Shown here piece after piece: positions 35,974 through 54,608 of a stretch of 64,000 nt of DNA. Where the stretch lies: IMG/VR virus record IMGVR_UViG_3300025372_000001. One strand, 5' to 3'. A program made the position numbers and the translations under genes. Each line of letters begins with the position of its first letter. Position 1 is the stretch's first letter. Under the pieces are notes generated by a model. It worked only from the letters and a program-made list of their open reading frames with translations, ran no database searches and was not told the DNA's origin. Source of the stretch: a virus. Taxonomy: Duplodnaviria; Caudoviricetes.

Positions 35974-36164
35974 TAAATAAAGTTTTGTTTCATAATTGCA
36001 AATTTTTCCAGAAATGGTCGTTCGGGTTCATTAAATCCTCCATTACCAGGAATAGCTAATCCTGTATATCCTTTATCATTTAAATATTTTACTTTAGAAA
36101 TATCCGTCAATAATGAACAATTTAAATAATTAATATCTTCTTCAGTTAATTGTATCTTTTCCAT
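35973..36164 (-). CDS. Small hypothetical protein
   Basis: 63-aa ORF; TAATG overlap with the next gene. Confidence 0.5.
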   Translation of the reverse strand: MEKIQLTEEDINYLNCSLLTDISKVKYLNDKGYTGLAIPGNGGFNEPERPFLEKFAIMKQNFI

Positions 36165-38240: not shown

Positions 38241-38441
38241 TTAAATGTGCTTAAACATTGAACATTTTTCTTGTCCTAAATCTTCATTATCAATAACAAT
38301 GATATTCATTCCAACTTGGAAAGCATTATAATTGTAATAAAGGCATTTCCTGAAATCAGGAGAATCAAAGAACATACCTTTCTTTGTAGTAGGTAATTTA
38401 CTACATTTTCCTTCGTCTGACATAAAAATACATTTATTCAT
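38241..38441 (-). CDS. Small Cys-rich hypothetical protein
   Basis: 66 aa with four Cys. Confidence 0.45.
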   Translation of the reverse strand: MNKCIFMSDEGKCSKLPTTKKGMFFDSPDFRKCLYYNYNAFQVGMNIIVIDNEDLGQEKCSMFKHI

Positions 38442-38444
38442 AAT

Positions 38445-38744
38445 TTATTCTAATATATAGCAATCTTCATCACCTGTTGCATCTTTGGGACAAATTTCTG
38501 GTTTACAAGAAAGAAAAGTCCGAAGTTCTTCTTTAGTGGAGAATTTAAAAGTGTTCCAACCATCAAATCGAGATTGAATAGCTAATATTGCTTCCTCTGA
38601 ACAATAACCATTTAATAATGCAGCGGTGCAAGGGCCGCTATACTTATAGTGTTCCGAATCTACAGGAAATAAAATTAAAGAATGTAGTAAACACTGCTCA
38701 AAGTTTTCTTGATTTTCTAATATTTGATCTAAGGTATATTTCAT
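38445..38744 (-). CDS. Hypothetical protein
   Basis: 99-aa ORF. Confidence 0.55.
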   Translation of the reverse strand: MKYTLDQILENQENFEQCLLHSLILFPVDSEHYKYSGPCTAALLNGYCSEEAILAIQSRFDGWNTFKFSTKEELRTFLSCKPEICPKDATGDEDCYILE

Positions 38745-39751
38745 TGTTTAAAACTTAAAATTAATTCATTCACTTTCTCTTGTGACATATCCGCATATTC
38801 TTGTTTGGTATGAAGTTTACGTAATTCACCCATGACTCTTCCTACTTCTTTACCATCACTAATATTGATAAGTTCCATGACTTTATAACCATTAACCTTT
38901 TCTTTAAAGGCTTTATCAAAAAGATAGCGAACTTTATTCTTTTTGATAGATTCTTTTAAAATAGGAAAACGTTCCGCCCATTCACAAATATAATATTCGC
39001 GTCGTTGAAAAACGTGTCGATTATATTTCCATGAATTCTTTTCAAGCCATTCTACGAAACCCTTGTAAACGATTCTCTTAGAATTTCTCACGCGATTTAC
39101 GTGGTTAAGATTTTCAAATTTGAAGATTTCAGGATCAAAATATTTTGAACTAGCTACCCAATGATATACTTCTTCATTGGTATCAAATCCATTTTTCCAA
39201 TGTTCATAATCGAATCCTAATAAGGGAAGAATAACTGAAAAGTCCTTTGTAAGAATGACCTTTTCCATAATATTATCATTATCTAAGAAGTTTAATTTAC
39301 TTTCAAAGAAACTCTGACGAATCCAATAAGATAAACCCGTGTGTCCTAGATGAACATCCATCTTGTGAGCAATCCTACCTTGAAACATGCCAACGTCGCC
39401 CCAACTAGTATAATCAATAGAAGATTGATAATCCTTCATTGGAACAAAGGTTAAATCTACTTGAAATCCTGCAATAGGAAATGAAATAACATTGGAATTT
39501 ACATGAACCTCCATTTGAAGATATTCTTCTAGTGTACGTCGAGTATCCAGAGAACCATCCATTCCAACAATAATATCTAAGTCTCCGGGAGATTCTTTTA
39601 GTCGAATTGACGGAGCAACACCTAATTTCCAAGTAGAAGGAAATACTTCTTTCATATCACGAAGAATATTATCTTTAAAGATATGATATTCTTCGTTAGA
39701 AAGTCGCTTTTCTGGCAAATCCCAGATTGATTGAATTAGTTTTCCACCCAT
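38741..39751 (-). CDS. Pol-beta-superfamily nucleotidyltransferase (start revised to ATG 39751)
   Basis: MGGK…, SIRLKESPGDLDIIV, FQVDL, WGDVG; TTGCCT-17-TAGTAT promoter 8 nt upstream. Confidence 0.75.
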   Translation of the reverse strand: MGGKLIQSIWDLPEKRLSNEEYHIFKDNILRDMKEVFPSTWKLGVAPSIRLKESPGDLDIIVGMDGSLDTRRTLEEYLQMEVHVNSNVISFPIAGFQVDLTFVPMKDYQSSIDYTSWGDVGMFQGRIAHKMDVHLGHTGLSYWIRQSFFESKLNFLDNDNIMEKVILTKDFSVILPLLGFDYEHWKNGFDTNEEVYHWVASSKYFDPEIFKFENLNHVNRVRNSKRIVYKGFVEWLEKNSWKYNRHVFQRREYYICEWAERFPILKESIKKNKVRYLFDKAFKEKVNGYKVMELINISDGKEVGRVMGELRKLHTKQEYADMSQEKVNELILSFKQ

Positions 39752-39792
39752 GATTCCATATACTAACACATGGAATCTATATAGGCAAATTA

Positions 39793-39999
39793 TTAACTAA
39801 GAGTTGCCTTAATTACTTCCAATTGTTTAGCAGAAATTTCCCCCTTAATAAATTTTTCGATATTTTCTCGAAGAATATCTGCTTTAGTAATTTCTTTAGG
39901 AGCAGGGGGGGCAACAGGTTGAGGAGTAGGTCCGAAATTGCCGCGAATTGGATCAGGATAGTTGGATACACCAAAGGTGCTAGAGGTTGTCATGGACAT
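39793..39999 (-). CDS. Small hypothetical protein
   Basis: 68-aa ORF. Confidence 0.5.
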   Translation of the reverse strand: MSMTTSSTFGVSNYPDPIRGNFGPTPQPVAPPAPKEITKADILRENIEKFIKGEISAKQLEVIKATLS

Positions 40000-40020
40000 A
40001 GATGGAGGTATTTATTTCCA

Positions 40021-40749
40021 TCAGATATAACTATCAATTCCTCTGTGCCAAATTCCGTCGTCTCTTCTTTCAATTATTCCTTGCTCAATATGAACCAATT
40101 CTCCTACTCGTTCCCCATTAACCCTCAATAAACAAGTCTTTAAACAATCTAATGTTTCTACTTCTATTCCATGATAATTAACCAGAAACATTAGGAATCT
40201 TTCATAGAAAGAATTTCCGCCCATTCTAATATAATATGGCAATAGATCGTATCCATCAGCAATCAAATCCATATTCGTTGAATTAGTAATATAAAATCTA
40301 TCACATAGTCCGTGCCAATCATCATGGTTCAATGTCCATATTTTTTGGAAATCAAATTCTTCAATATTATCAGGTAAAGCAGTATCTTCTAAGAGAAGTA
40401 AATCGGGTCGAACACGAACAACAATATCATATTTAAAATTATGGGCTTCTTCGTATCTTTGTTTTATTTTATTACATTGTTGTAAGCAATACAATTGTCG
40501 AAACATTCCTTGAGTAGCATGTTCATTGACTAAATCAAGATTAAGGTCTTTTCTCGTTTCGGAATGAAATTTTATAACATGATCATTTACTCCTAAAAAG
40601 GTGTTCATTTTATCAATATGGGGGTCATCTTGCCAGAAAAAGATAAAAATATCATAATCCTTAAATTTAGAGAGTATATTCTTCTCTAATAGATGAAACG
40701 TTTTATCGAGGGAACGAAATTCACCGGAAAAACAAATAGCAGTTCTCAT
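40021..40749 (-). CDS. Putative glycosyltransferase (GT-A-like)
   Basis: AICFSGEFRS, YDIFIFFW, YDIVVRVRPDL, CDRFYI. Confidence 0.65.
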   Translation of the reverse strand: MRTAICFSGEFRSLDKTFHLLEKNILSKFKDYDIFIFFWQDDPHIDKMNTFLGVNDHVIKFHSETRKDLNLDLVNEHATQGMFRQLYCLQQCNKIKQRYEEAHNFKYDIVVRVRPDLLLLEDTALPDNIEEFDFQKIWTLNHDDWHGLCDRFYITNSTNMDLIADGYDLLPYYIRMGGNSFYERFLMFLVNYHGIEVETLDCLKTCLLRVNGERVGELVHIEQGIIERRDDGIWHRGIDSYI

Positions 40750-41717
40750 TATAAACTATCAAGGAATACTGATTTAAATTTCTTCATCACTTCATTAGGA
40801 GTAAATGCTTTATAGGCATTCCAATCTCTATAAGTCCATTCCTTATTAAATGAGGATAATATCTGATAAACTTCTTCTTTATTAGAATAATAAATTCCTT
40901 TATCTTTCAGGGTAAAGATATGATTTCTTTCAGGACTATTAGCATAAGTGATAACTGGTTTATTGCATAAAGAAAATTCTGCACATGCTGCTCCGAAACT
41001 TTCTCCTACATGTCTAGCATGAATCATTGCATCACAAGTATTAATGAACTTCCTTTTAACGGTTAAATCCGCAAAAGGATGGGTATGAATGATTCGAGGA
41101 TGATTGAAGAATTGAGGAGTTTGAGCAAAAAGAAAGTAAACATCATCTCGTTCAGATAAGATTTTAACTATTGCTTCATTTACGAAATGAATATCCCAGC
41201 CATAATGTCCGCCCATTCTACCAAACACAATTGCATCACGAGGAATACCAATTTGTTCTCTAAAGTCTTCTTGAGTGTCTGGTAAATGAACACAATAAGG
41301 AACAAAAGGATGCTCTCCTTTAGAGCAATGAATGCTTGACCATTCAGAAACATATGCATATACTTTTCCATGAGGTTCGTTGTTCATTCCTACTACATGA
41401 ACAAACATGGGAACATTATTGACCCATCTTCCTTCATTGATTTTACCGTTTTTTTGAAGATAACAAGCGGCAGCATTATGTTGAGTAATTGCATCCTCAA
41501 GAGCAGGCATATTTTGTGTTCCCGGTAATGCAACTAATTCAATATTATGTTGTTTGAATTTCTCAATTACTAAAGGACTGTTATAGGAATTAACTTCATC
41601 ATAAATCATCACAGATTTATTTCCAAGAATGGATTGATTGAAGTGACAATAATCGAAGTAGGAAACTCCTGTTCCTTGGAGGTCCATATGAGGTTGATAA
41701 AATGCTAAAGTGCTCAC
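40749..41717 (-). CDS. GT-B (GT4-like) glycosyltransferase
   Basis: QGTGVSYFDY, FGRMGG, FINTCDAMIHARHVGESFGAACAEFSLCNKPVIT. Confidence 0.8.
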   Translation of the reverse strand: MSTLAFYQPHMDLQGTGVSYFDYCHFNQSILGNKSVMIYDEVNSYNSPLVIEKFKQHNIELVALPGTQNMPALEDAITQHNAAACYLQKNGKINEGRWVNNVPMFVHVVGMNNEPHGKVYAYVSEWSSIHCSKGEHPFVPYCVHLPDTQEDFREQIGIPRDAIVFGRMGGHYGWDIHFVNEAIVKILSERDDVYFLFAQTPQFFNHPRIIHTHPFADLTVKRKFINTCDAMIHARHVGESFGAACAEFSLCNKPVITYANSPERNHIFTLKDKGIYYSNKEEVYQILSSFNKEWTYRDWNAYKAFTPNEVMKKFKSVFLDSL

Positions 41718-42532
41718 AATAAACTATATTCTTTTTGTTCTCTAATCTGTTCTTTGATACTTTTAGTAACCAACTTAGTAGTATCGTAAATAGAATCAAG
41801 CGTTCGGTAAATGCTCTTTGGCGCAAAAGATGGGATAATATCCACGGTCAAGCCATATAATTCATTGATTTTAGTAATCAAATCAAATTTGGAACAAACA
41901 TCGGGAGAATGAATATGTCGAACTCCTTCCCATATCATATTGTTTTCTATGATATGATGAATAAATTTGCTTAATTCTAAGCAAGTTACGCCATTCCATA
42001 AATGATTATCATAGCCATTTATAGTTTGACCTTTACTAGCTTTTACCCATTCTAATAGGGATTTTTTATGTCTAAGTTCTTCTCCGATAATAGACGTGCG
42101 AATGACACATGCTTTATCTGGTTCTCCTAAGCTTTTACTTTTACCATAAACACTTGTTTCATCGTGTTCATCTTTTTCATCATAACCGCCAGTTCTACCC
42201 GAAAAGACACAATCAGTGGTAATATGAATTAACTTAGCTCCGAGAGCACTACAAAGATATTGCAATTCATGTGGCAGAACAGAATTAATCAATATGCTAT
42301 CTAGAGGATTTGAGTCTTTTCGTTGAGGTACAATACCGATACAATTAATGACAATATCATTTTTAGACAAAACTAGATGTCTATTTAAACATGTAATACT
42401 TTCCCCATTTAGCGACAGGTTATTACGTGTGAAGTGTAATATCCTATAATCTTTAACGGGATTGCGTTTTAGATATGTATACACATATCTTCCTAACATC
42501 CCATTTGCTCCTAATACTAAAATATTATTCAT
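41714..42532 (-). CDS. rmlD: NDP-4-keto-6-deoxyhexose reductase (RmlD-like)
   Basis: GANGMLG, INCIG, HITTDCVFSG, YGKSK, IRTS. Confidence 0.88.
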   Translation of the reverse strand: MNNILVLGANGMLGRYVYTYLKRNPVKDYRILHFTRNNLSLNGESITCLNRHLVLSKNDIVINCIGIVPQRKDSNPLDSILINSVLPHELQYLCSALGAKLIHITTDCVFSGRTGGYDEKDEHDETSVYGKSKSLGEPDKACVIRTSIIGEELRHKKSLLEWVKASKGQTINGYDNHLWNGVTCLELSKFIHHIIENNMIWEGVRHIHSPDVCSKFDLITKINELYGLTVDIIPSFAPKSIYRTLDSIYDTTKLVTKSIKEQIREQKEYSLL

Positions 42533-43476
42533 GGTTTATAAAAATTATGCTCTTCTAAAAATTCATATAATTCTTTTTCATCGATTAAACAATTCCTAGA
42601 CGAATATTCATTATCAGTAAAAGAAAATGCATTGTTTTGTATGTTTTTATGAATATTGAAAACATCATATTGATCATTCCAAGTCGTTCTCGGCATCTCT
42701 TCTGGAGCAATCATCAATTCATGAATCTTTTCATTAGGCCGTGGAACGGTAATATCATACTTTAATTTAAAAATATCATGATATATATTAAACAAATCTT
42801 TAACTTTGAAGCTCATTGCAGCAGGAACAACATTGACATTATTAAATTGCAATGATTTATAAATCAAATCCATTGCTTCTTCAATAGTTAAAAGAAACCT
42901 TGTCATATCCTCCCCAAACAAGGACAAAGTTTTATCATTCTTAATATATTTCCAAATTAAAGGAATAATTGAACCGGTTGAATTAACTACATTGCCATAT
43001 ACAACAGAAACTAATCGAGTAGAAACGTCTTCATTATTAGAAATAAAACTTTCAGAAGCAGTAAATTTCATTGAACCGTAAATGGTACTTGCTGCTCTAC
43101 TTTTATCAGAAGAAATAAAACAAGCAGCTTTCAACTTGTTATCAATTGCTGCCTTCTTTGAATTGAATGCGCCCTGAACAATGATTTGATTGGCTTCTTC
43201 GTAATTAGTTTCACATGCCTCGATTTGCTTCATACTTGCTGCAAAGATACCAATATCCATTCCTCTCATTGATCTATTCAAATGATCAAAATTACGAATA
43301 TCCCCGACAATAAATTTAACCTTGGGAAACTCTTTCTTTAAGAAATAATGTTTGGCTTCATCTCTGGAGAAAACGGTAATTTCATTATTTTGATATAAAT
43401 CCTTGATTAGATTTTTACCAAGATAACCTGCTCCTCCCGTGATAAAAACACGGGAATTTATGGGTCGATAACTCAT
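42529..43476 (-). CDS. UDP-GlcNAc 4,6-dehydratase (PseB/FnlA/CapD family)
   Basis: TGGAGYLG, FSRDEAK, GDIR, AASMKQI, SSDKS, YGSMK, YGNVVNSTGSIIP, MTRF, RPNEKIHE. Confidence 0.88.
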   Translation of the reverse strand: MSYRPINSRVFITGGAGYLGKNLIKDLYQNNEITVFSRDEAKHYFLKKEFPKVKFIVGDIRNFDHLNRSMRGMDIGIFAASMKQIEACETNYEEANQIIVQGAFNSKKAAIDNKLKAACFISSDKSRAASTIYGSMKFTASESFISNNEDVSTRLVSVVYGNVVNSTGSIIPLIWKYIKNDKTLSLFGEDMTRFLLTIEEAMDLIYKSLQFNNVNVVPAAMSFKVKDLFNIYHDIFKLKYDITVPRPNEKIHELMIAPEEMPRTTWNDQYDVFNIHKNIQNNAFSFTDNEYSSRNCLIDEKELYEFLEEHNFYKP

Positions 43477-44048
43477 GCTAGGGTCAATATATCATCAATA
43501 CTCTGTCCTTGCAAGATGATACTTTTATTATTAAAGTAATAATCAAAGTCTTTTCTTTCATAAACTAAAATATTCTTATTTGGTTGAACTTTAACAACAC
43601 CTAATACATCATTACTTGGAAAGATATAAGAAAAAGCATTAAAATTCGGATTGCCTCTGATTTCAATAAATGAAATATATGCGGTTCCACTAGCAGTTTG
43701 TTTAGTATTATCTAAATTCTCTGGTCCAACATCATGCATGAAAATAATTCCATCAGGATTTAATGCTTTTACTGCATTCTCAAAATCTTTATTAACTTGC
43801 GAGTATTCGTGGTATGCATCAATATAAATCACATCAAATGTTTGAGTATTCTGTTTAAAGAAATCATCGGTTGTTCCCAAGAAATCAGGTCTTGTCCGAG
43901 GATTAGTATCTATTCCTTTTTTATGTAAACATTTAATTCTATCAAATGTTTCTCTTGCTTCTCCTAATCCTAATTCAAGATAAGAAGAATATTGCTTATG
44001 TTCTATAACTCGGTTGATTAATTCAAATTTATCTTTCATATTGTTCAA
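43473..44048 (-). CDS. Class I SAM-dependent methyltransferase (Methyltransf_24-like, probably a glycan O-methyltransferase)
   Basis: YLELGLG, FDVIYIDAYHEY..V..D, LNPDGIIFMHD. Confidence 0.8.
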   Translation of the reverse strand: MNNMKDKFELINRVIEHKQYSSYLELGLGEARETFDRIKCLHKKGIDTNPRTRPDFLGTTDDFFKQNTQTFDVIYIDAYHEYSQVNKDFENAVKALNPDGIIFMHDVGPENLDNTKQTASGTAYISFIEIRGNPNFNAFSYIFPSNDVLGVVKVQPNKNILVYERKDFDYYFNNKSIILQGQSIDDILTLA

Positions 44049-44952
44049 TTTTATCCATTACGTATCTGGCTCTGGCAATAGTTGTTCCATTTTCTTTCAA
44101 CCATTTCTGTTGAGCCTCGTATAATTCTATATATTCCTTCGTTGGTTTATTATCAATTACCAATCTATTCATTATCTCATATAATTCTTGTTCAGTATGA
44201 TATGAAATAGTTGGAAGATTTCGAGGTTCCATTAAAGGATGTTTATCTTGGTAATTTTTAAACAATAAAACGGCTCCATTTGCCATTATTTCATAATGAC
44301 GAAGGCATTCCCATCCTCCTTTTACACAAGTCAAACCAAACCAACTTTCTTGAAGGTCTTTATAGTATTCTTCTTCTGCATTGAATTTTTGAGTAGAATT
44401 ATTCCGAAAACAAGCATCAGCAGGAGAAGTTTGTTGAAACAACTGTTTCTTTATTTCTAAATTTATATTTGATATTTTATGAGAAGGAATACCGAAACCA
44501 ATCGGCCAAACAGTATCAAAATCTTCCACTAATTCACGTTTAAAACATTTGGAAAGGAATTGTGTTCCAATAACTTCTTGCCCTTTATACGTTATTTTCC
44601 TTTCTGCATTACCATAAAGATCGTTTCCATCTGTATAGAATTGATTGGGATGATTTACGTTCCATCTGTCTCCGTAAATGAATCCTGAACCGTGAATAAC
44701 TACATCAAAATCAATTACTCTTAGATTATTTCTATCATATGATGCATCTTTGATGGGCGAAGTACAGAAAGTCATACCTTTTCCATGCAGTTTATTCATG
44801 GGAGATTCAGTAAAATCACCATAAAGTATTTTCTTTTTCGGAAATTCAACGAAGTCTTCTCCTAATAGTTCTCTTAATCCATGAACCAAGGTTAACTCAA
44901 GGTAATCGCCTTGAGCATTAGAATTTCTAGTACATAAAAATAAAACTTTCAT
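44029..44952 (-). CDS. Putative glycosyltransferase (GT-B-like)
   Basis: FKREL, PIGFGIP, KGGWECLRHYEIMANGAV. Confidence 0.65.
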   Translation of the reverse strand: MKVLFLCTRNSNAQGDYLELTLVHGLRELLGEDFVEFPKKKILYGDFTESPMNKLHGKGMTFCTSPIKDASYDRNNLRVIDFDVVIHGSGFIYGDRWNVNHPNQFYTDGNDLYGNAERKITYKGQEVIGTQFLSKCFKRELVEDFDTVWPIGFGIPSHKISNINLEIKKQLFQQTSPADACFRNNSTQKFNAEEEYYKDLQESWFGLTCVKGGWECLRHYEIMANGAVLLFKNYQDKHPLMEPRNLPTISYHTEQELYEIMNRLVIDNKPTKEYIELYEAQQKWLKENGTTIARARYVMDKIEQYER

Positions 44953-45713
44953 TATTGTTGAACCAATCTAATATCTGATAAATTATGAATAGGTCGATTT
45001 TGAATCATGCTACTGGCAGAAGGTCCACTATTAGGACGATTATATTCAATATTAAGTTGACTATCATTCCAATTTTTCCATGATTTTTTAATATCTTCTC
45101 GTTCTTTTCCTAAAAATAAATCCCACTGTTCGTATTTCTCTTCGGGAAGATTTTTAATGATAATGTTACTGTATCGCATATCGTATTTTGCATCCCAATG
45201 AGGTTGAGAATAACGACATTTACTGTTTATATCTTGTAAGGGACTTTTTGCTTCCCCATAATTATAATTTGACTCTTGTGATTCATATAATGCTAAATTA
45301 TGTTGTTTTAAACGGAAAACAAAATCTCTATCTTCCCATCCTCCTCCAATAAATCGTTCATCCCACCAACCAATCGTTCTAATTAATTGCTTGGAGAACA
45401 TCATGTACCCAACATTATACATAAAAGAAGCAGCATAACCTTCTTTCATATGATTAATCATTTTCAGTGCTTCTTCTAAAGTGATTATCGATCTATCATT
45501 GACAAAAATCATCCATTCATATTTGGAAGTAGCAATGGCATGATTCATCATTAAGCTATAAGACTTATAGGCATGGGGATAACGTTCCGAGCGTAAATTC
45601 CAATCAATCTCATAATTTCTTTCTAATTCTCCCAGAATATGTTTTTGTTCCTTCTCAATAGAAGATGAATGTCCTACATGTAAATTTATACTAATTTCTC
45701 CAATATCAATCAT
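44952..45713 (-). CDS. GT2/GT7-C-like glycosyltransferase
   Basis: MNHAIATS…IFVNDR, IGWWDERFIGGGWEDRDFVFR. Confidence 0.75.
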   Translation of the reverse strand: MIDIGEISINLHVGHSSSIEKEQKHILGELERNYEIDWNLRSERYPHAYKSYSLMMNHAIATSKYEWMIFVNDRSIITLEEALKMINHMKEGYAASFMYNVGYMMFSKQLIRTIGWWDERFIGGGWEDRDFVFRLKQHNLALYESQESNYNYGEAKSPLQDINSKCRYSQPHWDAKYDMRYSNIIIKNLPEEKYEQWDLFLGKEREDIKKSWKNWNDSQLNIEYNRPNSGPSASSMIQNRPIHNLSDIRLVQQ

Positions 45714-46627: not shown

Positions 46628-47589
46628 ATAATTATATAGTCACATGCTTTGAGACTATCAAGGTTCTTCCCGCCTGAATAACTTACACTAGATTTCAGAC
46701 TATCTTCAATTAATTTAATTTGCTCTTTTAAAGTTAATCCATTGGTATCAGTATGAATGATGGTTCCTTCGACATTAGAGGAATGACCTTTTGCTTTGGC
46801 GGTAGAATTACCGTAATAACCTTCACGAATGGCAGGAGAGTCGATACATTGAGAGAATAAGAATCCACTACAGACATAATTTGCTCCGAATCGAATAGCT
46901 TTGGCAATATCACCGATTGCAGGTTCTCTTGTTGCACATTTAGTAATACCTCCATCAGAGATGATTTTAATCTTATTTTTAGCTTGGGCCATTCGATAAA
47001 GATCACCAATAGAGGTCGAACCAAAACCGGTGAATTGACGGGTTCTACAACTTTGACTAATTCCAATATTAACCTTTGCAGCATCTACACCTAAATCTTC
47101 TAACCATCTGATCCAATCAGGATGATCCCCATTACCAACAATTAAATAAGCAGCAGGAAGATGTTCTTTAATATATTTGATCATTCTTTCTACTTGATCT
47201 TGCCAAGATAATGCAACATCAATAGTGATATAAAGATTATTTTTTTTATAATGGTCTTTAATCCATTGAACTAATTCATAATCAGAATCTTTAACTCCGA
47301 TAGAGACGGATGCAATATTCCAATTATCTTTTTCGACTCTGGTAAGGAAATCTTTAATTTGAGAATAGGGGCAAGTACGATGAAAGATATAGAACCACCC
47401 TGCTTTATCAAAGATTTCGCAAATATCTTCATTGATAATGGCTTTCATATTTGCAGGGAAAACCGGTGAATTGATTTTGATATGGCCTATAAGGGTAGAA
47501 ATATCACATTCTTTTCGTGAATTTATAATACATCTACCATGTTTAAGTAGAATATTTTCATAGGTTAGGTGTTGGGGTATGTTATTCAT
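46624..47589 (-). CDS. guaC: GMP reductase (GuaC, IMPDH/GMPR family)
   Basis: SPVFPANM, FYIFHR, ITIDVA, IVGN, KVNIGISQSCRTR..TGFG, IISDGGI, DIAKAI, YYGNST, SSVSYSG. Confidence 0.8.
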   Translation of the reverse strand: MNNIPQHLTYENILLKHGRCIINSRKECDISTLIGHIKINSPVFPANMKAIINEDICEIFDKAGWFYIFHRTCPYSQIKDFLTRVEKDNWNIASVSIGVKDSDYELVQWIKDHYKKNNLYITIDVALSWQDQVERMIKYIKEHLPAAYLIVGNGDHPDWIRWLEDLGVDAAKVNIGISQSCRTRQFTGFGSTSIGDLYRMAQAKNKIKIISDGGITKCATREPAIGDIAKAIRFGANYVCSGFLFSQCIDSPAIREGYYGNSTAKAKGHSSNVEGTIIHTDTNGLTLKEQIKLIEDSLKSSVSYSGGKNLDSLKACDYIII

Positions 47590-47590
47590 A

Positions 47591-48370
47591 TTAGTTAATC
47601 CAAGATTTTGCTACATTCCAATTACTTCCGGTAAAGTGCCGGAATTTTACTTTACTTCTATCATCAAACTTATTGATATAGAAAGTAGTATCAGATTCAC
47701 CGGGCCAAATAGTTAGGTTATATTCTACGGGAAGAATTTGCACATGTCTATTAAAATCTTCTACCGAATAAAATGTAGTAATCTTCTTGTCGGAATGAAC
47801 TCCATTATTAGGTAATTCTGTGAAGGGAATCCATGAATGACGCTTAATACCGAAAAGATCGTAGAAGACCGCCTGCTCACGGAATTCATTTAAAAATATT
47901 GATGGTGGTCTATTAGGAAATCCTTCATGAATAGTATATTCTCTTGACATTCGCTGAAAGCGATCTTCGTCAAGGATATTATCTACTAACTGTCGAGTCC
48001 AATCATTGATTCTCAATCCAAAAATACCGTGGCAGTACGAGTTTCCAGAGTCTATACAAATTGTCATAGACTTATCCTCGGCAGGTTCATAATCATCTAC
48101 CCAAGATTTTACCACAACATCCGCATCTTGTTGAATAATTATATCATTCTCTTTTAATGTTTCGCTTTTAATTAGTGATTGAATAATGCTCCATTTACAC
48201 CAAGTTAAGTTGCCGCGAAAAGGAACAGGATTATGTTCTTTCCGAATCTCTACATATTTAAATCCATGCAGTTCACAGTAATCTTTATTTCTAGGAGAAA
48301 TAATCTCGTCAAAAATCTTCTGGCGATAATCATTTTCTGGATAGGCACTGATAACAAATAGGTATTTCAT
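47591..48370 (-). CDS. GT34-like (GMA12/MNN10-type) glycosyltransferase
   Basis: NKDYCELHGFKY, WCKWSII, QDADVV, EQAVF. Confidence 0.7.
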   Translation of the reverse strand: MKYLFVISAYPENDYRQKIFDEIISPRNKDYCELHGFKYVEIRKEHNPVPFRGNLTWCKWSIIQSLIKSETLKENDIIIQQDADVVVKSWVDDYEPAEDKSMTICIDSGNSYCHGIFGLRINDWTRQLVDNILDEDRFQRMSREYTIHEGFPNRPPSIFLNEFREQAVFYDLFGIKRHSWIPFTELPNNGVHSDKKITTFYSVEDFNRHVQILPVEYNLTIWPGESDTTFYINKFDDRSKVKFRHFTGSNWNVAKSWIN

Positions 48371-48537
48371 TCAAATATATAATTCTTTAGATTGTTGAGA
48401 GCTTCTTTATATTCAGCTAATAATTTCTGGAAATGTGCATCATCTATTTCTTCCCAATACGAATACTCGTCCATGGCATAATGAAAGCCTTCAAAACTTA
48501 TAATTTCTTTAATATAATCTTTAGCGTTTTTGTCCAT
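48367..48537 (-). CDS. Small hypothetical protein (56 aa, missed by the ORF track)
   Basis: MDKNAKDYIKEIISFEGFHYAMDEYSYWEE…; ATGA overlap with the next gene. Confidence 0.55.
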   Translation of the reverse strand: MDKNAKDYIKEIISFEGFHYAMDEYSYWEEIDDAHFQKLLAEYKEALNNLKNYIFE

Positions 48538-48567
48538 CTTATTTTCTCAAATAAATTAATAGGTATT

Positions 48568-48786
48568 TCATCGATCTAGTAGATATGCTTGATAATATAT
48601 ATCAGCCAAATTCATTATCAATTCTTGAGCACGACTTTCATCCCAATGTTCGGATTTAGACATATTATATGCTATTTTTAAATATTCTCTAATATCAAAT
48701 ATTTTTTCTAATTTCATATTTCTATATTCAATTTGAAACTTTTCATGCTCATACATGGGAGCAGGTACAATTATATCTTCTATCAT
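48568..48786 (-). CDS. Small hypothetical protein
   Basis: 72-aa ORF. Confidence 0.5.
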   Translation of the reverse strand: MIEDIIVPAPMYEHEKFQIEYRNMKLEKIFDIREYLKIAYNMSKSEHWDESRAQELIMNLADIYYQAYLLDR

Positions 48787-49646
48787 AATCTCTTCAAAAT
48801 CTGATTACAAGTGCCCTCAAGCGTGAACCAATCATCGTATAATTCTTTCGCTTTTCTCAGCATACCATTATATCTTTCTTTATCATTATAAATTTCCATT
48901 AAAATATCATGCATGTGGTAAATTTGATCGGGTTTAATGATAACACAAAAATCTTGCCACTTCAATTGTTCTTCCCAAGGAAGCCAATGTTTATCTGAAA
49001 CATAAACAGGAACAGAATTTAATTGCATTGCCTCATATAATCTAAAACTGGCGGGCGCGTTCCCTCTTATCGCTAAAGTGAAAGCAGATTGTGAAGTTAT
49101 TGTAATAAATTCATCTAATTTTTCTGATGGTAATGTTTGTTGCCAATTTTCCATAGGAGGAAAATAACAATCTTTATATTTTCGTAATACTTCATAAGTG
49201 TATTGTCTTAAAGGGTGTGTCATCCTACCCACAAACGAACAAAGGTATTTTTTGTTGTCGGTGATTATTAGCTTTTCTTGGGGTATTTTAGACACTACTA
49301 ATGGAATAGGCACTTTATATGTTCCCGATCCTCTGTCGCTTGCAGCAGCAAATACAGTGGTATTACGGGGCAATGTATGTAATACCCCATCATCAAACTG
49401 AACAATTGTAAAATATTCTTCATTTTGTGGAAGAGCATTTAAATATTCCTGAACAGGGATAGGATTCTGTTGAACATATATAGGGGTCCACCAAACGGCT
49501 AGATATTTTTTATTAGTTTTAACTTTATCTTTGTTAGCATGAAATGCATTAAAGAAACTTTCCTCCAAATAAGTTTCAGGATTCGCATATGGTGGCATGG
49601 GAGGATACTCGGATTTTATCCTAAGTTTTGAAAAATCGTAAATCAT
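48783..49646 (-). CDS. Exostosin-like GT47 glycosyltransferase
   Basis: LCSFVG, SAFTLAIRGNAPASFRLYEAMQLNSVPVYVSD.HWLPWE..LKWQDFCV. Confidence 0.85.
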   Translation of the reverse strand: MIYDFSKLRIKSEYPPMPPYANPETYLEESFFNAFHANKDKVKTNKKYLAVWWTPIYVQQNPIPVQEYLNALPQNEEYFTIVQFDDGVLHTLPRNTTVFAAASDRGSGTYKVPIPLVVSKIPQEKLIITDNKKYLCSFVGRMTHPLRQYTYEVLRKYKDCYFPPMENWQQTLPSEKLDEFITITSQSAFTLAIRGNAPASFRLYEAMQLNSVPVYVSDKHWLPWEEQLKWQDFCVIIKPDQIYHMHDILMEIYNDKERYNGMLRKAKELYDDWFTLEGTCNQILKRL

Positions 49647-49647
49647 A

Positions 49648-50358
49648 TTATTTTAATTTCTCCTTAAAAAGTTCTAACAATTGCTCTTTATGCTCATAAT
49701 GACAATAATTACCATGAAGAAATAATAACTTCTCTTTAAAGGGAATTTCAAAGGTGTTATCTGTTCCATCCCATACTTTACCTGCAATAGACCCATACGT
49801 AAATGCAACATCGAACGGAAGAACATTAAACTTAATGTCTTTTAATTCAAAAAATCTATGTTTATTCACTAAAAGCCAGGTGAATACTTCCTGTTCATTA
49901 GCAAATGTTGGTTGCCCTGGAACAAGAGTTGTGCCATGCATAATAACATTAACTGCCTTCATTAAATTCCTAGTATTTTCCGTGGATTTGATACATATTA
50001 TTCCAGTACAATAATTGGGAAAATGAGGAAAAGGAGAATCAGATTGACATAGAACATCATAATCCTTCATTGCTTTTTGAACATAATCAAAGAAGTTCTG
50101 AACAATGATAATATCAGTATCCACAAAAAGATAATATTCTCCATCAGGAGTAGTCATTAACTCATTGTATAACAGTTCTGATTTTATTTGCATGAAGTTC
50201 TTCCATTCGGAAGAATTAAATTTTGGTTTCTCTCCTGCTAATTGTGGAGCTTCTACTGCTTTTAATTCCAAACGATCATCTTTAGGAAAAGATGGAAGAA
50301 AATATTCTTCATACATTTTTTTATGGCTTGGACTATATAATGTTACGATTTTCATCAA
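49648..50358 (-). CDS. Nucleotide-diphospho-sugar transferase (GT77-like)
   Basis: LFVDTDII, DVLCQSD, CTGIICIKSTENT, NEQ, LHGNY. Confidence 0.75.
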   Translation of the reverse strand: MMKIVTLYSPSHKKMYEEYFLPSFPKDDRLELKAVEAPQLAGEKPKFNSSEWKNFMQIKSELLYNELMTTPDGEYYLFVDTDIIIVQNFFDYVQKAMKDYDVLCQSDSPFPHFPNYCTGIICIKSTENTRNLMKAVNVIMHGTTLVPGQPTFANEQEVFTWLLVNKHRFFELKDIKFNVLPFDVAFTYGSIAGKVWDGTDNTFEIPFKEKLLFLHGNYCHYEHKEQLLELFKEKLK

Positions 50359-51225
50359 CTACTCAATATAACGTATTTGCTTTTCCGTATCAAGTCGCAT
50401 CGCTTCAAAAAAGTTTTCAGTAAATTCTTTTTCCCCTTCTGGAACAACTGTAAACTTTCCCCAAGGGCGTCTTTTGCACAGGTTATGTTGCAGGTGAAAA
50501 AACATCAAATTAACCACTAATTGATTAAAAGGACTGTTCTTGATTTTATTTTCATTATATCTCTTCTCTACAGAATCTTTATGAGAAACATTGTCATGAA
50601 ATATATGACAAATAATAGGCTTTTGGGGATCATTTAATAATTTCCCGCCATATAACATAATTAATCCAGCATACAATACATCAAATAAAGGTTGTCCAAT
50701 TAACATCTCGGGGTGCAAGTGGGCATATTTGTTCCACCATTCTTTTTTATAGCAAAAAAAATCGAAGCCAGCCGGTTCACTTCGGATAACATTAATTCCT
50801 TTCTGTTTAATTTCATTAAAACTATCAACTGGTTCAATGTCTAACCGAGATGCAGCAAAAGCAGGAACATCGTTTTGTTGCATATAATCAATAAAATTCT
50901 TAGTTAAGATACAATCACTATTAACATATGCAATATGAGTGATGGTCTTATCTTCTTGAGCTTTTTTATAAAGAATATCCAATATATCTTTAATAGATGG
51001 AATATCTTTTTCTGAATCATCTAGATAAAATCTAGAATTGATGTATAAATCAAATAAGGCAGGAATACCAAATCGAGAAATTTTCCCTTCGTTTTCAAAA
51101 GGAAATTGTAAGGCAACTAATTCAATTAAATCTGGATATTGTTGTTGTAAATGTATCCAAGATTCCCTTGCAATATCTTGTCGAATATTATTTCCGTATA
51201 TGTTCGTGCCTATAAGGATTTTCAT
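50359..51225 (-). CDS. Putative GT-A glycosyltransferase
   Basis: YVNSDCIL DxD-like motif, SRLD, GFDFF, IGQPLFD, CHIFH. Confidence 0.6.
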   Translation of the reverse strand: MKILIGTNIYGNNIRQDIARESWIHLQQQYPDLIELVALQFPFENEGKISRFGIPALFDLYINSRFYLDDSEKDIPSIKDILDILYKKAQEDKTITHIAYVNSDCILTKNFIDYMQQNDVPAFAASRLDIEPVDSFNEIKQKGINVIRSEPAGFDFFCYKKEWWNKYAHLHPEMLIGQPLFDVLYAGLIMLYGGKLLNDPQKPIICHIFHDNVSHKDSVEKRYNENKIKNSPFNQLVVNLMFFHLQHNLCKRRPWGKFTVVPEGEKEFTENFFEAMRLDTEKQIRYIE

Positions 51226-52025
51226 AAATTTCCGTAACCTCCTTTATTACATGCTAAACTTCTCAAATTACTAATTAATTCTTCCTGGGATGGTGCAAGA
51301 ATATTAGGCACATGAACATAATGCTCTGCCATGAATATCTTATAATCATTTTGTAAGGTATCCCATCTGTTTCCATTAGGATCAATCCTACTAATTGCAT
51401 CTGGATTATTCTTTATAAGAGAATCACTTAAACTTAAATCCCCAAAATTCCAAAACCCAAAACCGTATCGAGAAGTAGAGAACCTATATGCCCATTCCGC
51501 ATCAAAAAGACTCTTCATTTGCTCATTATATAATCCAATATCTTCTAATACTCTTAATGACCTATAAGTAAACTCATTGGTCATATTCTTATAGAAATAA
51601 ATGATTAAATCATCATTATATCGAATTTTATGTCTAGGTGTTCTTGCTCCAACTGGTCCACTTTCCCATCCATAACTGGCAAATGAAAAATATTCTATTC
51701 CCGTTATTTTTGCAGCATTAATATATTTCTCAAAAATAGTTTCATCTAGACAAACCATGTCATCTTCGCATAAAAAAATATGCACATTACCTAATTGTTG
51801 GGCAATCTTTAATCCATCATTTCTAGCAGATGCAATATTCTTAACCTTCTCATGTTGAATCCAAATCAATTTATTATCTGGTAGATTATAAGATTTGGTG
51901 TAAGGATTGCCTCCATTTACTACAATAACTTTATCTACTTTATGAAACGGCATACTATTCCATAAGGTATCGAAATAGTTTTCCGAATTAAAAGTAGTAA
52001 TAATTAAGGTAATTTTGTCATTCAT
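51222..52025 (-). CDS. GT2 glycosyltransferase
   Basis: LIITTFN, VIVVNGG, NIASARNDGL, FLCEDD, IGLYNE. Confidence 0.85.
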   Translation of the reverse strand: MNDKITLIITTFNSENYFDTLWNSMPFHKVDKVIVVNGGNPYTKSYNLPDNKLIWIQHEKVKNIASARNDGLKIAQQLGNVHIFLCEDDMVCLDETIFEKYINAAKITGIEYFSFASYGWESGPVGARTPRHKIRYNDDLIIYFYKNMTNEFTYRSLRVLEDIGLYNEQMKSLFDAEWAYRFSTSRYGFGFWNFGDLSLSDSLIKNNPDAISRIDPNGNRWDTLQNDYKIFMAEHYVHVPNILAPSQEELISNLRSLACNKGGYGNL

Positions 52026-52027
52026 CT

Positions 52028-53233
52028 CTAATGCCCAAATCCTACCTTTCTTACCGGTTTAACTATATTACCATTATCTTCTGCATTATAAATATCAGCA
52101 AGGACCATTCGTTCTTGGGGTGGATCAATACCATATAACTTCTGATACAAGGCTTCTGTCTTTTCTCTAGATAACTTCTCAAAGAAGTGTTTAATGAACA
52201 TTCTTCCTCTGCGTTTTAATGCAGAATCAATTTTATCTTCGGAAGTATTGAATGTTGCAATTATTTTGAAATTTAACACTGATCCCATAATACCATCTGA
52301 TAAATTCAGAATAATGCTCATGGCAGAATTGGTTTCATCTTGTTCCCTTGAAATCAAAACTTTCTCTGCATCTTCAATCAACAACAAGCTGTTGGAATAT
52401 TGTTTAATGAATCCAAGAAAAGCAGGATCACTCAATGCTTCTACATAACAAGGCGGAATATAAATCTTCCGAACAGAAGGAAGTTGATTAAGAAGATACT
52501 TAATATAATTGGTCTTACCTGAACCAGGTTCTCCGTGAAGAAGAGCAATTCTATTATTTTGTAAAGAGAAATCTTGTGCCCAATCTATAATCTTTTCATG
52601 AACCCCTTTAAATTTATCATCATAATTTTCATCAATATCAAGATCAAATCCAGTGATTGTATAAGGGCGAAGAACCATTTCTCCGTATTCATTCTTCTCA
52701 AATAAGTGAATATTATGATTGGTATCTTTTTTGACTTCGAAAAGGTTGCGAAATTCTACAACATTATTCTTATAATCTGTATTGATATTATAATAAACAT
52801 TTACAGTGAAGGTTTTATTATCATCTGCATCATAAGAACGTTCAGTAGAAACGCTTAATTGAATAGTTGCTTCATTAGCAAGATTAACAAATGTGATATT
52901 TTCATTAGAATTATAACGAGAATCACTTGTACAAGTAAAGATTACATAATTCTGTTTTAGAATATATTCTAATACTTTATCTAAGTTTTTCTTAGAGACT
53001 TTGAAACAAACTGTGGATGCAACTTGTTCAAAGAGCATAAAGTAAATACCTTCAGCACTATAAAATAAATCTCTATGAATGAGAAGTTCCTGGGGAAACT
53101 TGTAATCTTCAAATCGAGAAAACTTATTAATGATTTCTGAATTTAAAAAAGAATAATTTTCTAATTCGAATGCTTCTCCTGAAGGAATTGCAGAGGAGGA
53201 AAATCCAGGAACAGTTACATGTGCTCGACTCAT
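52028..53233 (-). CDS. AAA+ ATPase (BCS1-like clade)
   Basis: LLHGEPGSGKT, LLLIEDAE, LNLSDG, TFN, DSALKRRGR. Confidence 0.88.
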   Translation of the reverse strand: MSRAHVTVPGFSSSAIPSGEAFELENYSFLNSEIINKFSRFEDYKFPQELLIHRDLFYSAEGIYFMLFEQVASTVCFKVSKKNLDKVLEYILKQNYVIFTCTSDSRYNSNENITFVNLANEATIQLSVSTERSYDADDNKTFTVNVYYNINTDYKNNVVEFRNLFEVKKDTNHNIHLFEKNEYGEMVLRPYTITGFDLDIDENYDDKFKGVHEKIIDWAQDFSLQNNRIALLHGEPGSGKTNYIKYLLNQLPSVRKIYIPPCYVEALSDPAFLGFIKQYSNSLLLIEDAEKVLISREQDETNSAMSIILNLSDGIMGSVLNFKIIATFNTSEDKIDSALKRRGRMFIKHFFEKLSREKTEALYQKLYGIDPPQERMVLADIYNAEDNGNIVKPVRKVGFGH

Positions 53234-54069
53234 TAGGATAATAGTTGTTTGTTGGCAAAACGTTTTTCAATATCAATTAAAGCAGCAAGAACATCGTCTT
53301 GAGAAAATCTTGGGGCATCTTGAGGAAAGTAACCGAAAGTTTCTTTAAAGAGTTGCCAAGAATAACTAAAATTAGATTTGAATTCAGGATCATTTCTAAT
53401 GACAGATTTTTCATGGTTCGCATCTTGATCAGAGATATATAGGAATGAGTTTAACACATCAGCATGATAAAGTAAAGGGGTTCCTCGTTCATTAAGGAAA
53501 ATCTTTTGATGTTGGGCTAAATGTTCTGCGGCATTTAAATATCTTTCATCAAAATATCCGCCATCTTCAATCATATCTGCTCGAATTAAGGTAAATGCTT
53601 GAAAGGAATGTAGATAAATATCTACTTCTTTATTGGTATATTTAACTGTTGCCCGTTTCTTGGGAGTTCCATCATCATTGACATTTCCGCCACTAATTCC
53701 GCCATGTAAACCGTACGATAGTTGTGCTGCCCATAGTCCGCTATCAGCAGCAGTAAGAATATATTCTTCAAATACTTTATTATCTTTGATAACGATGTCA
53801 TCTTCGGCAAGGAAGATATATTTGAAACCGTCTTGGGAGGCTTTGCGCATTCCCATATTCTTTGCAATTCCGACAGGAACTTTACGTCTGGCTTGAAGAA
53901 CCTCTACATCAGGAGGATAGTTGTCATAGGCTTGACCTGCATTGATGATATAGATTTTTGCAACAGCATCACGGTTAATGGAATTGACGAGGTTTTTACA
54001 AAAATCTGAACGATTGCATGTAATAATGACTACGGCAGTTTCTTCTTTAAATCGATTAATTTCTGACAT
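53233..54069 (-). CDS. GT2 glycosyltransferase
   Basis: VVIITCNR, VGIAKNMGM, FLAEDD, GYFDERY..AAEH; paralogue of 51222-52025. Confidence 0.85.
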   Translation of the reverse strand: MSEINRFKEETAVVIITCNRSDFCKNLVNSINRDAVAKIYIINAGQAYDNYPPDVEVLQARRKVPVGIAKNMGMRKASQDGFKYIFLAEDDIVIKDNKVFEEYILTAADSGLWAAQLSYGLHGGISGGNVNDDGTPKKRATVKYTNKEVDIYLHSFQAFTLIRADMIEDGGYFDERYLNAAEHLAQHQKIFLNERGTPLLYHADVLNSFLYISDQDANHEKSVIRNDPEFKSNFSYSWQLFKETFGYFPQDAPRFSQDDVLAALIDIEKRFANKQLLS

Positions 54070-54098
54070 TTTAATTATGATAATTTACCATAAATGAT

Positions 54099-54455
54099 TT
54101 AAGGTTTCAATAAATATGTCAGAGTATCAGCATTAATTTTTCTTAACAGTTTAGAATTAGAATTGTTCATTATAGATAAATCTATTGCCATCGTAATAAT
54201 CCGTTCCCATTCTAATTGGGTATCTTTTTCTAAATCTTTGAATCTTCTTCTATCAGGATAGATAATGTTCCATATGATTGAAGTAATTTCCCAGTCAGAT
54301 AATTTATCCGGTTTGGTTTTATCTATATCAAAAGCATTCCAAGATGATCCTGACTTTCCGTTACAAATACAACAAGTATCTTGATATTCTGTTCCAATGG
54401 AGAAGTCGCCCATCCATTGTAACCCTGTTCCGTTACATGCTTTACAGTTATTCAT
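54099..54455 (-). CDS. Small protein with a DnaJ-type CxxCxG Zn motif
   Basis: CKACNGTG…CCICNG; start probably MNNCKAC at 54455. Confidence 0.55.
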   Translation of the reverse strand: MNNCKACNGTGLQWMGDFSIGTEYQDTCCICNGKSGSSWNAFDIDKTKPDKLSDWEITSIIWNIIYPDRRRFKDLEKDTQLEWERIITMAIDLSIMNNSNSKLLRKINADTLTYLLKP

Positions 54456-54459
54456 AATA

Positions 54460-54591
54460 TTAAAATAAATCAGAATCGTCAACCGTTTTTGATTTTAAAA
54501 AATCTGTAAATTCTTCTAATGCGAGTATCAACCCTTCTGTGCTCCAATTTCTCATTTGCGGAACATCAAAAAATACTTCGTGTTCATTCAT
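54460..54591 (-). CDS. Small hypothetical protein (43 aa, missed by the ORF track)
   Basis: MNEHEVFFDVPQMRNWSTEGLILALEEF…; fills the intergenic gap. Confidence 0.4.
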   Translation of the reverse strand: MNEHEVFFDVPQMRNWSTEGLILALEEFTDFLKSKTVDDSDLF

Positions 54592-54608
54592 ATCAGTTAT
54601 TTTTATTC

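Follow-up and report, generated by a model that had tools for sequence, protein, structure and literature searches.

Gene content of the gp47-gp46 interval

The stretch of viral DNA analysed here (64,000 nucleotides, hereafter the window) is taken, in reverse orientation, from an 82-kb IMG/VR virus record (IMGVR_UViG_3300025372_000001; Caudoviricetes), which is estimated to be 31% complete. In this window, the recombination genes gp47 (54609-55613) and gp46 (36489-38240) are separated by 16,368 bp holding approximately 26 tightly packed genes on one strand, and most of this interval is occupied by a glycan-synthesis island with ten glycosyltransferase (GT) candidates, three nucleotide-sugar enzymes, and a methyltransferase. 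Between 58220 and 34871 every gene is on the minus strand (-), and most overlap by a few bases. In the order of transcription, they are UvsY (57828-58220), the UvsW helicase (56387-57826), a gp55-type late sigma factor (55617-56381; phrog_234), gp47, a Mre11/SbcD-like nuclease (Metallophos and Metallophos_2) forming the upstream flank, the interval itself (38241-54608), and gp46, a Rad50/SbcC-like protein (SMC_N, 53.8 bits) forming the downstream flank. The gp46 protein is 26-27% identical to annotated cyanophage gp46 across 99% of its length (tblastn), and gp47 shares 28-56% identity with its homologues in relatives.

In Prochlorococcus phage P-SSM2 the gene order is identical, with a single open reading frame (ORF) of 93 amino acids (aa) separating gp47 from gp46. 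Measured against this common T4-like arrangement, the 16.4 kb between the two genes are thus a true insertion. Nor is the island an assembly artefact, because independent contigs from other samples bridge its junctions. Two independent IMG/VR contigs (L003 and L004) continue from gp47 into the island, covering its first three genes at 92-99% identity, Logan contigs span both island edges, and a second freshwater sample has identical pieces over the whole gap (this Logan check used contigs only, with low or missing coverage in runs X4 and X5 and two low-support joints). GC content is 31-35% throughout, without a step between island and flanks. Nucleotide searches with the island and gp46 against 50,697 phage records returned no match, so that relatives are recognizable at the protein level only. 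An earlier, sequence-only reading of this DNA had noted the 16.4-kb separation, which these contigs confirm, and had treated the whole of 38241-54608 as a glycan island. The gap is real, but judging by gene content the glycan block proper is narrower (40021-54069), and the last 1.8 kb (38241-39999) has no apparent link to glycans.

Glycosyltransferase candidates

The earlier count of about ten GTs holds, with unequal support among the candidates: two score above Pfam cut-offs, two match a PHROG family, two are assigned to the GT-A fold by predicted structure, one is a GT34-like lead from a protein atlas, and three are weak. Those above the Pfam cut-offs are a GT77-type nucleotide-diphospho-sugar transferase (49648-50358; Nucleotid_trans, 46.2 bits against a cut-off of 22) and a GT47/exostosin-type (RXYLT1_C) enzyme (48783-49646; Exostosin_GT47, 51 bits; RXYLT1_C, 47.5 bits). 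As a query for related loci, the GT47-type protein recovered no confirmed locus.

The gene adjoining gp47 on the island side, here called the edge GT (53233-54069), encodes a GT-A/GT2-like protein with an EDD motif. It matches phrog_2456 (glycosyltransferase, 9e-10), and its Pfam GT2 score of 18 bits is sub-threshold. It has 74 homologous clusters, E89 and D91 are invariant, and the gene directly follows gp47 in G003, G004, L011, L014, and L039. Searched against PDB, its profile gave only a non-significant match to GmaR (E 0.054). A 30%-identical paralogue at 51222-52025 is likewise GT2-like, matching phrog_2456 (7e-12) and a rhamnosyltransferase subfamily (5e-5), with a sub-threshold Pfam GT2 score of 21.9 bits.

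Structure prediction assigns the GT-A fold to two further proteins. One is the product of the gene at the gp46-side edge (40021-40749), a DUF7796 protein (PF25072, 33.3 bits; AF2 pLDDT 92) whose model resembles GT6 blood-group transferases in a Foldseek comparison with PDB (GT6/BoGT6a, 2e-7) and WavE and TOD1/MUCI70 in AFDB (1e-16). The other, a 288-aa protein with an NSD motif and HxxH (50359-51225; AF2 pLDDT 96), resembles RmlT (Foldseek, 7e-8), GalNAc-T2, TarP, and hyaluronan synthase, and matches GT2/xylosyltransferase entries in AFDB. Its family has no Pfam model and comprises 133 representative homologous clusters; none of the 57 members tested matches any glycosyltransferase Pfam model, and sequence and profile searches of PDB with this family were empty.

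The GT34-like candidate (47591-48370) was found by a protein-atlas feature search (0.97, 183 shared features). The matched atlas cluster has PF05637 in 95% of its members, and the protein itself has no direct Pfam match. Two of the remaining candidates are a weak GT-A candidate at 44952-45713 (Glyco_tranf_2_2- and Glyco_transf_7C-like at 21.9 and 17.8 bits, below the cut-offs; phrog_2456, 4e-4), which is 57% identical in G002, and a weak GT4-like (GT-B) candidate at 40749-41717 (Glycos_transf_1, 21.8 bits against a cut-off of 26.4), which is 70-87% identical in G003. The third, a 307-aa protein (44029-44952), is probably a GT-B-type transferase of a widespread unannotated family. Atlas features relate it to Glyco_trans_1_2 clusters (0.95), a Pedobacter homologue is annotated as a glycosyltransferase, and 4 of 33 homologues weakly match PF13524 (Glyco_trans_1_2). 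At least 137 homologous clusters (90% identity), Tara marine sequences included, belong to this family, for which the PDB profile search and hhalign gave nothing significant. Kinship of the 307-aa family with the GT47-type and GT4-like proteins of the island was also considered and rejected, as hhalign was not significant and the resemblance is at the level of motifs (S-x-F-x-L...R-x-YE). The 307-aa and 288-aa proteins both represent large, mostly viral aquatic families without a Pfam model, and these may be candidates for new GT family definitions.

Sugar precursors, methylation, and missing machinery

The three nucleotide-sugar enzymes that the sequence-only reading had listed are borne out by family searches, as are its methyltransferase, GMP reductase, and AAA ATPase. 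GDP-L-fucose synthase (Fcl/GMER; 45710-46627) matches NF047922 over its full length (446 bits against a cut-off of 500) and Epimerase at 199 bits. A 315-aa UDP-GlcNAc 4,6-dehydratase of the PseB/FnlA/CapE/Mg534 type (42529-43476) matches Polysacc_synt_2 (156 bits) and PDB 4tqg (8e-37); since it misses all equivalog cut-offs (PseB, 174 of 408 bits; FnlA, 126 of 730 bits), the stereochemistry of its product is not fixed. Directly downstream, in an overlapping frame, is a 272-aa RmlD-type 4-ketoreductase (41714-42532; RmlD_sub_bind, 73.9 bits; PDB RmlD, 7e-13), whose size of about 270 aa fits a UDP-L-RhaNAc pathway. The 4tqg structure is Mg534 of Megavirus chilensis; this enzyme and the 270-aa reductase Mg535 jointly produce the UDP-L-Rha2NAc used in fibril glycans (PMC10117803), and the phage pair has the order and sizes of Mg534/Mg535. 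Upstream of the dehydratase, a class I S-adenosylmethionine (SAM) methyltransferase (43473-44048; Methyltransf_24, 43.1 bits) is probably a sugar O-methyltransferase, a target suggested by its gene context.

Two other enzymes are encoded within the block. A BCS1/AFG2-like AAA+ ATPase (52028-53233; Pfam AAA, 37.8 bits; PDB BCS1, 1e-7) is 95% identical in L004 and 59% identical in G003, and its N-terminal half has no family match. A divergent GMP reductase (GuaC type 2; 46624-47589) keeps the catalytic Cys and matches NF003966 (255 bits) and PDB 1ypf (4e-58). The GMP reductase gene is directly upstream of Fcl in the window and in G003. In G002 (L029:1992-3880, L030:5301-9526), a full-length GMP reductase lies about 1 kb upstream of Fcl, one fragment abuts Fcl, and a second fragment lies about 0.9 kb downstream. 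This adjacency may mark a functional link, in which guanine nucleotides are recycled once GDP-sugars have been used, or it may be a scar of recombination.

None of the island proteins has a membrane segment, the maximum 19-residue hydropathy being 1.51. Furthermore, family searches of the 82-kb record, which covered about 31% of a roughly 262-kb genome (island proteins are also present on contigs up to 262 kb), gave no match to a priming phosphoglycosyltransferase (PF02397, Bac_transf), Wzx (PF01943), or Wzy_C/ligase (PF04932), all of which were matched in control genomes. The lack of a flippase, polymerase, and ligase that had been read from the sequence is thus supported. GDP-mannose 4,6-dehydratase (Gmd) is also missing from the 82-kb record, where the sole strong match to PF16363 is RmlB-type; this match, outside the window (L033:451-1467), was considered as the missing Gmd and rejected (TIGR01181, 344 bits versus 62 bits for gmd). 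Sugar-1-phosphate nucleotidyltransferases were not seen. Without Gmd and sugar-activating enzymes, the pathway relies on precursors from the host, contrary to the earlier proposal of a self-contained one; the Gmd step would have to come from the host enzyme or from the part of the genome beyond the 82-kb record. Moreover, a further deoxy-sugar pair lies outside the island, namely an RmlD-like gene (287 aa) overlapping an RmlB-type NDP-glucose 4,6-dehydratase gene (338 aa, 344 bits). This pair (L036:8242-10091, equivalent to G000:C1:~1-1467) is about 1-2 kb past the window end, about 9-10 kb upstream of gp47, and directly upstream of a Dda-like helicase. What stands of the proposed pathway for a methylated deoxy-sugar glycan is therefore a dense, giant-virus-like glycan-building set with deoxy-sugar and methylation enzymes, but not its self-sufficiency.

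A fixed slot with exchanged cassettes

Relatives were recovered with gp46, gp47, and the island proteins as probes. The earlier reading had called for a comparison of island content across related genomes, and this comparison showed a slot that is kept, middle cassettes that are exchanged, and a gap that ranges from 0 to at least 21 kb. In L018, L020, L022-24, and L007 (gp46 approximately 31% identical), gp47 and gp46 are adjacent with a gap of about 0, as in P-SSM2. Gaps of 3.9-5.1 kb occur in L017/L021, of 7.2 kb in L014, and of 8-10.7 kb in L011/L013, L039, and G004, and the largest are found in G003 (18.3 kb) and G002 (at least 21 kb).

The GT2-like edge gene is directly behind gp47 in every island-bearing relative examined (32-99% identity), and the DUF7796 gene is near gp46 in most of them (G003, G004/L011, and L014, and split in G002; 26-62% identity). 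Between these edges, G003 retains most window genes (30-88% identity) and substitutes other ORFs, including an FkbM methyltransferase, for a block of five genes (the GT2_2-like protein, the 307-aa protein, the methyltransferase, the dehydratase, and the reductase). G002 adds sugar enzymes, a sugar kinase, and GMP-reductase fragments, and L039 adds a sulfotransferase and a cytidylyltransferase. A Pfam tally pooled over 78 island ORFs of the relatives, with matches not mapped to loci, comprised three GT10 fucosyltransferases, four FkbM methyltransferases, four SDR sugar enzymes, two each of GT47, GT77, and GT4, and three GMP reductases. ThyX-like and DNA-methylase genes were also found in relatives' gaps. 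The locus therefore carries glycosyltransferases and nucleotide-sugar genes between conserved flanks with cassette variation, and the gene comparison points to a serotype-like pattern in which the edges are constant and the interior is variable.

Small genes and the flanks

Between gp47 and the edge GT, two small ORFs are present at 54099-54612: a 50-aa ORF read from the sequence (54460-54612) and a CxxC-rich protein of approximately 118 aa, with a likely ATG at 54455, that is 45% identical in L003/L004. Neither has a family match in Pfam, NCBIfam, or PHROG. Two further small ORFs (72 aa and 56 aa) are located at 48367-48786, the former being 41% identical in L010.

The tail of the gap (38241-39999) encodes a 342-aa Pol-beta-like nucleotidyltransferase candidate (38741-39769) and ORFs of 68, 99, and 66 aa. 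The nucleotidyltransferase call of the sequence-only reading is plausible, given a GDLDIIV...VDL motif and a match to phrog_24943 ('DNA polymerase', 1e-40), but the protein shows no link to sugar activation, and searches of Pfam, NCBIfam, and PDB gave no match. The N-terminus of the 68-aa ORF (39793-39999) is rich in Ser, Thr, and Pro, its C-terminal helix (DILRENIEKFIKGEI) is strictly conserved, and the ORF is 66% identical in two relatives. It is the sole gene within 38241-54608 with a late-type motif (AATAAATA) upstream, 16 nt before the start codon. Tail ORFs are 59-67% identical in relatives, with the 68-, 342-, and 99-aa ORFs all in G003 and the 68- and 342-aa ORFs in G002.

The first 630 bp of gp47 (54985-55610) cannot be aligned at the DNA level to L004, which is otherwise 92-93% identical; the DNA breakpoint falls exactly at the gp47 start codon, and the gp47 protein is just 56% identical to that of L004. 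Parts of the two small ORFs behind gp47 (54100-54600) are likewise unalignable to L004 DNA. The N-terminal two thirds of gp47 thus look like a recent allelic replacement within a core recombination gene at the island edge. On the other side, a LAGLIDADG homing-endonuclease gene (279 aa) and a 63-aa ORF (35134-36164) lie between a 102-aa gene after gp46 and the thioredoxin gene. These two neighbours are directly adjacent in L008 and L009, and the LAGLIDADG gene looks like a free-standing endonuclease insertion.

Late-type motif

The heptamer ATAAATA starts 12-16 nt before the start codon of 11 window genes, for example 156-806(+), 1768-2283(-), 4505-5071(+), 9359-9868(-), 11864-12892(+), 13219-14844(+), 14861-15901(+), 33083-33916(-), 35973-36164(-), and 39793-39999(-). 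Scans for sigma-70 promoters and terminators yielded results at chance level. A late-controlled split GT had been counted as a probable part of the island; one piece of it, at 33083-33916, is outside the island and behind the late-type motif, which the sugar genes lack, and common control is not supported. As the motif is so close to the start codon, almost no room is left for a leader or a Shine-Dalgarno site, and Shine-Dalgarno-like motifs precede just 4 of the 39 genes checked. These features suggest that late mRNAs are near-leaderless and that the host, possibly a member of the Bacteroidota, makes little use of Shine-Dalgarno sites. The nearest bacterial homologues of two island proteins are in Pedobacter and on a DUF5723-bearing contig.

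A candidate acceptor and a model for the island

A cassette of the same phage (L046:1-8985), about 35 kb from the island and reached via overlapping public contigs with identical proteins, encodes a 687-aa poly-threonine protein (L046:5096-7159). It contains long poly-Thr runs (TTTIAPTTTTTTTTTTTT...) and reaches 34 Ser/Thr in a 40-residue window. A gene for a 1919-aa protein lies before it, and immediately behind it come a GT2-family gene (282 aa) and a polysialyltransferase-like gene (310 aa). By composition and position beside giant fibre-like proteins, the poly-Thr protein is a plausible candidate for a mucin-like acceptor. The adjoining GT has a weak sequence match to TarP (E 0.007). No homologue of it was found in two complete island-less phages (G006 and G007) and three fragments, distant phages for which an empty result shows little.

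Gene content, predicted folds, solubility, slot conservation, and cassette exchange have direct support and form the basis of the model. We tentatively favour, at a little short of an even bet, the joint reading that the slot is a long-resident, hypervariable glyco-island of a freshwater T4-like jumbo phage lineage, and that its enzymes assemble a chain straight onto an acceptor in the cytoplasm, for which phage proteins destined for the virion surface are the likeliest choice. A cytoplasmic, non-lipid acceptor is favoured because the island enzymes cannot prime, flip, polymerise, or ligate a lipid-linked glycan, because they are soluble and come without carrier or export machinery, and because the GT34/47/77-type, Mg534-like, and methylation families are giant-virus-like. 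Phage proteins are favoured because the same phage encodes the poly-Thr mucin-like protein.

We infer the sugar identities, the order of steps, the early or middle expression, and the acceptor. Fcl would make GDP-L-fucose from a host-made 4-keto intermediate, and the Mg534/Mg535-like pair would convert UDP-GlcNAc to a 6-deoxy-L-HexNAc, probably L-RhaNAc. The SAM methyltransferase would O-methylate a sugar, and the approximately ten GTs would add sugars successively. In this scheme the edge GT adjoining gp47 would perform the constant step, and the outer glycan would differ from strain to strain according to the middle cassettes carried, much as in the glycosylation of giant-virus fibrils and capsids. 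A more specific version is doubtful as a whole. It proposes lipid-carrier-independent protein O-glycosylation that puts giant-virus-like methylated deoxy-sugar glycans on mucin-like virion fibres (a phage 'glycocalyx'), with cassette alleles as exchangeable serotypes of a freshwater phage lineage, the edge GT, perhaps with the BCS1-like ATPase, starting the chain, and the swapped middle determining the outer structure.

Several points weigh against glycosylation of phage proteins. Half of the ten transferase calls depend on sub-threshold scores or on feature-based evidence. The poly-Thr protein is a putative acceptor, tied to the island solely by a shared genome, at a distance of about 35 kb. 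The nearest cellular homologue of the edge GT (31% identity) is in a complete bacterial Wzx/Wzz/Wzy polysaccharide locus (L040:4773-16477), and many O-antigen transferases are likewise soluble. In addition, ATAAATA is found before none of the sugar genes at 40021-54069. Because of this and because the island is in the run of recombination genes, it is probably expressed with those genes, before the virion proteins. Such timing is compatible with virion glycosylation, yet early or middle expression suits the rival readings equally.

Alternative explanations

Host-envelope remodelling, which we regard as unlikely, is the standard reading of 'LPS/cell-wall' (lipopolysaccharide) clusters in pelagimyophages and cyanomyophages (PMC7029224; PMC12801897). 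Soluble phage GTs would act on undecaprenyl-linked O-antigen or capsule intermediates of the host at the inner membrane face and use the host priming enzyme, flippase, polymerase, and ligase; the resulting surface change could block, for example, superinfection or re-adsorption of progeny. Early or middle expression, suggested by the missing late motif, suits a surface change during infection, the 31%-identical edge GT homologue is surrounded on its bacterial contig by Wzx, Wzz, Wzy, and GT2/GT4 genes, and cassettes are swapped much as in bacterial O-antigen and capsule loci. Nevertheless, neither the island nor the 82-kb record contains a priming transferase, flippase, polymerase, ligase, or ABC exporter, and the flippases and polymerases of a host tend to be specific for their cognate repeat unit. 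A typical repeat unit needs fewer than ten transferases, a lytic cycle gives little time for renewal of the surface layer, and GT34-, GT47-, and GT77-type enzymes with an Mg534-like pathway are characteristic of virus-encoded protein glycosylation in the cytoplasm.

The interval could also be a permissive insertion site rather than one pathway, filled with unrelated auxiliary genes that have different targets or are in partial decay (several small glyco-modules with no connection to one another, along with an ATPase, a nucleotidyltransferase, and an enzyme of nucleotide salvage). GMP reductase, the AAA ATPase, the nucleotidyltransferase candidate, and small ORFs in the gap have no sugar link, relatives' gaps hold ThyX-like and DNA-methylase genes, fragments of GMP reductase and a split DUF7796 gene occur in G002, and the gp47 flank is itself mosaic. 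This is improbable, however, for a locus whose sugar genes form one uninterrupted run of overlapping frames on one strand, where donor-making enzymes co-occur with matching GT types (Fcl with GT10 fucosyltransferases in relatives), edge GTs persist to 26-32% identity, and all window genes are intact. The weakest rival, and a very improbable one, is DNA hypermodification, in which the GTs would glycosylate a modified base in phage DNA and confer resistance to host nucleases. It would fit a position within the replication and recombination genes (where T4 keeps small ORFs, next to the T4 alpha-gt position) and the lack of a late motif. The edge GT faintly matches a TET-associated glycosyltransferase (16.9 bits, E 0.006), and one homologue has PF20691. 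Poly-arabinosylated DNA is a precedent for short glycans on DNA, but known clusters pair a thymidylate-synthase homologue, a dCTPase, and a nucleotide kinase with GT-B transferases (PMC13326640). The 82-kb record has no gene of the thymidylate-synthase family (PF00303), dCTPase and dNMP kinase partners are not among the Pfam, NCBIfam, and PHROG matches of the island, and most candidates are GT-A rather than GT-B. A Tet_JBP search, which matched none of the control genomes, carries no information. Ten GTs with fucose, HexNAc, and methylation are far beyond any known DNA glycan.

Should the glycan be on virions, tailed phages would resemble giant viruses in having a sugar coat that they encode themselves and that varies between strains, which would bear on adsorption, grazing, aggregation, and host recognition. 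If it is on the host envelope or on DNA instead, the island would be an unusually elaborate device for superinfection exclusion or anti-restriction. The Mg534/Mg535-like pair and Fcl lend themselves to direct assay in vitro.

Comparison with known systems

In mycobacteriophages, phage-encoded cytoplasmic GTs reportedly modify capsid and tail-tube proteins (work of Freeman and colleagues in Cell Host Microbe), a proven precedent for the mechanism favoured here. Those systems are said to consist of one to few GTs beside structural genes, with no sugar-synthesis pathway, whereas the island has approximately ten GTs and three sugar enzymes far from structural genes. Mycobacteriophage virion glycosylation (Freeman et al. 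2023) is cited in PMC12619734.

Bacterial Wzx/Wzy O-antigen and capsule loci similarly exchange cassettes between conserved flanks and combine GT2/GT4 with deoxy-sugar and methylation genes. In contrast to them, the island and the 82-kb record lack a priming phosphoglycosyltransferase, Wzx, Wzy, Wzz, and a ligase. Phage DNA glycosylation (T4 alpha/beta-glucosyltransferase; arabinosyl-5-hydroxycytosine of RB69/DLP3) resembles the island in its site among replication and recombination genes and its probably not late expression. It differs in the number and kind of enzymes, and no base-hydroxylating thymidylate-synthase homologue, dCTPase, or nucleotide kinase is present here.

Giant-virus clusters for Megavirinae fibrils (Mg534/Mg535/Mg536) and chlorovirus capsids are likewise clade-specific and combine rare-sugar synthesis with soluble GTs and methylation. 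They do so without endoplasmic reticulum/Golgi or lipid-carrier machinery, and 4tqg is the best solved relative of the island dehydratase. Virus realm and host are different, and the island has no 2-epimerase of the Mg536 type. Mimivirus cluster genes have late promoters (PMC10117803), whereas the sugar genes of the island have no late-type motif. The glycosylated product is proven in giant viruses, whereas here it is predicted from genes.

GT-rich clusters are already known from aquatic T4-like phages. Pelagimyophages have a GT-rich 'LPS/cell-wall' host-recognition cluster (PMC7029224), and the cyanomyophages P-SSM2, S-SCSM1, and S-SCSM2R carry GT-rich clusters with unknown targets, including 13 GTs in S-SCSM2R (PMC12801897). 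Large phages, many GTs, nucleotide-sugar epimerases and dehydratases, and hypervariable regions are shared features. Their clusters are among tail-fibre genes or near the genome end, whereas the island occupies the gp47-gp46 slot; it also has conserved edge GTs and GT34/47/77-type enzymes, in a genome with approximately 27% identity to cyanophage core genes. For twenty years such clusters have been catalogued as 'LPS genes' with no known target. The present locus is set apart by its fixed gp47-gp46 slot, conserved edge GTs, cassette exchange, giant-virus-like enzyme set, and two widespread transferase-like families without Pfam models. Its main value may be that a fixed slot, edge enzymes, exchangeable cassettes, and a candidate acceptor in the same genome make the acceptor question of these clusters experimentally approachable.

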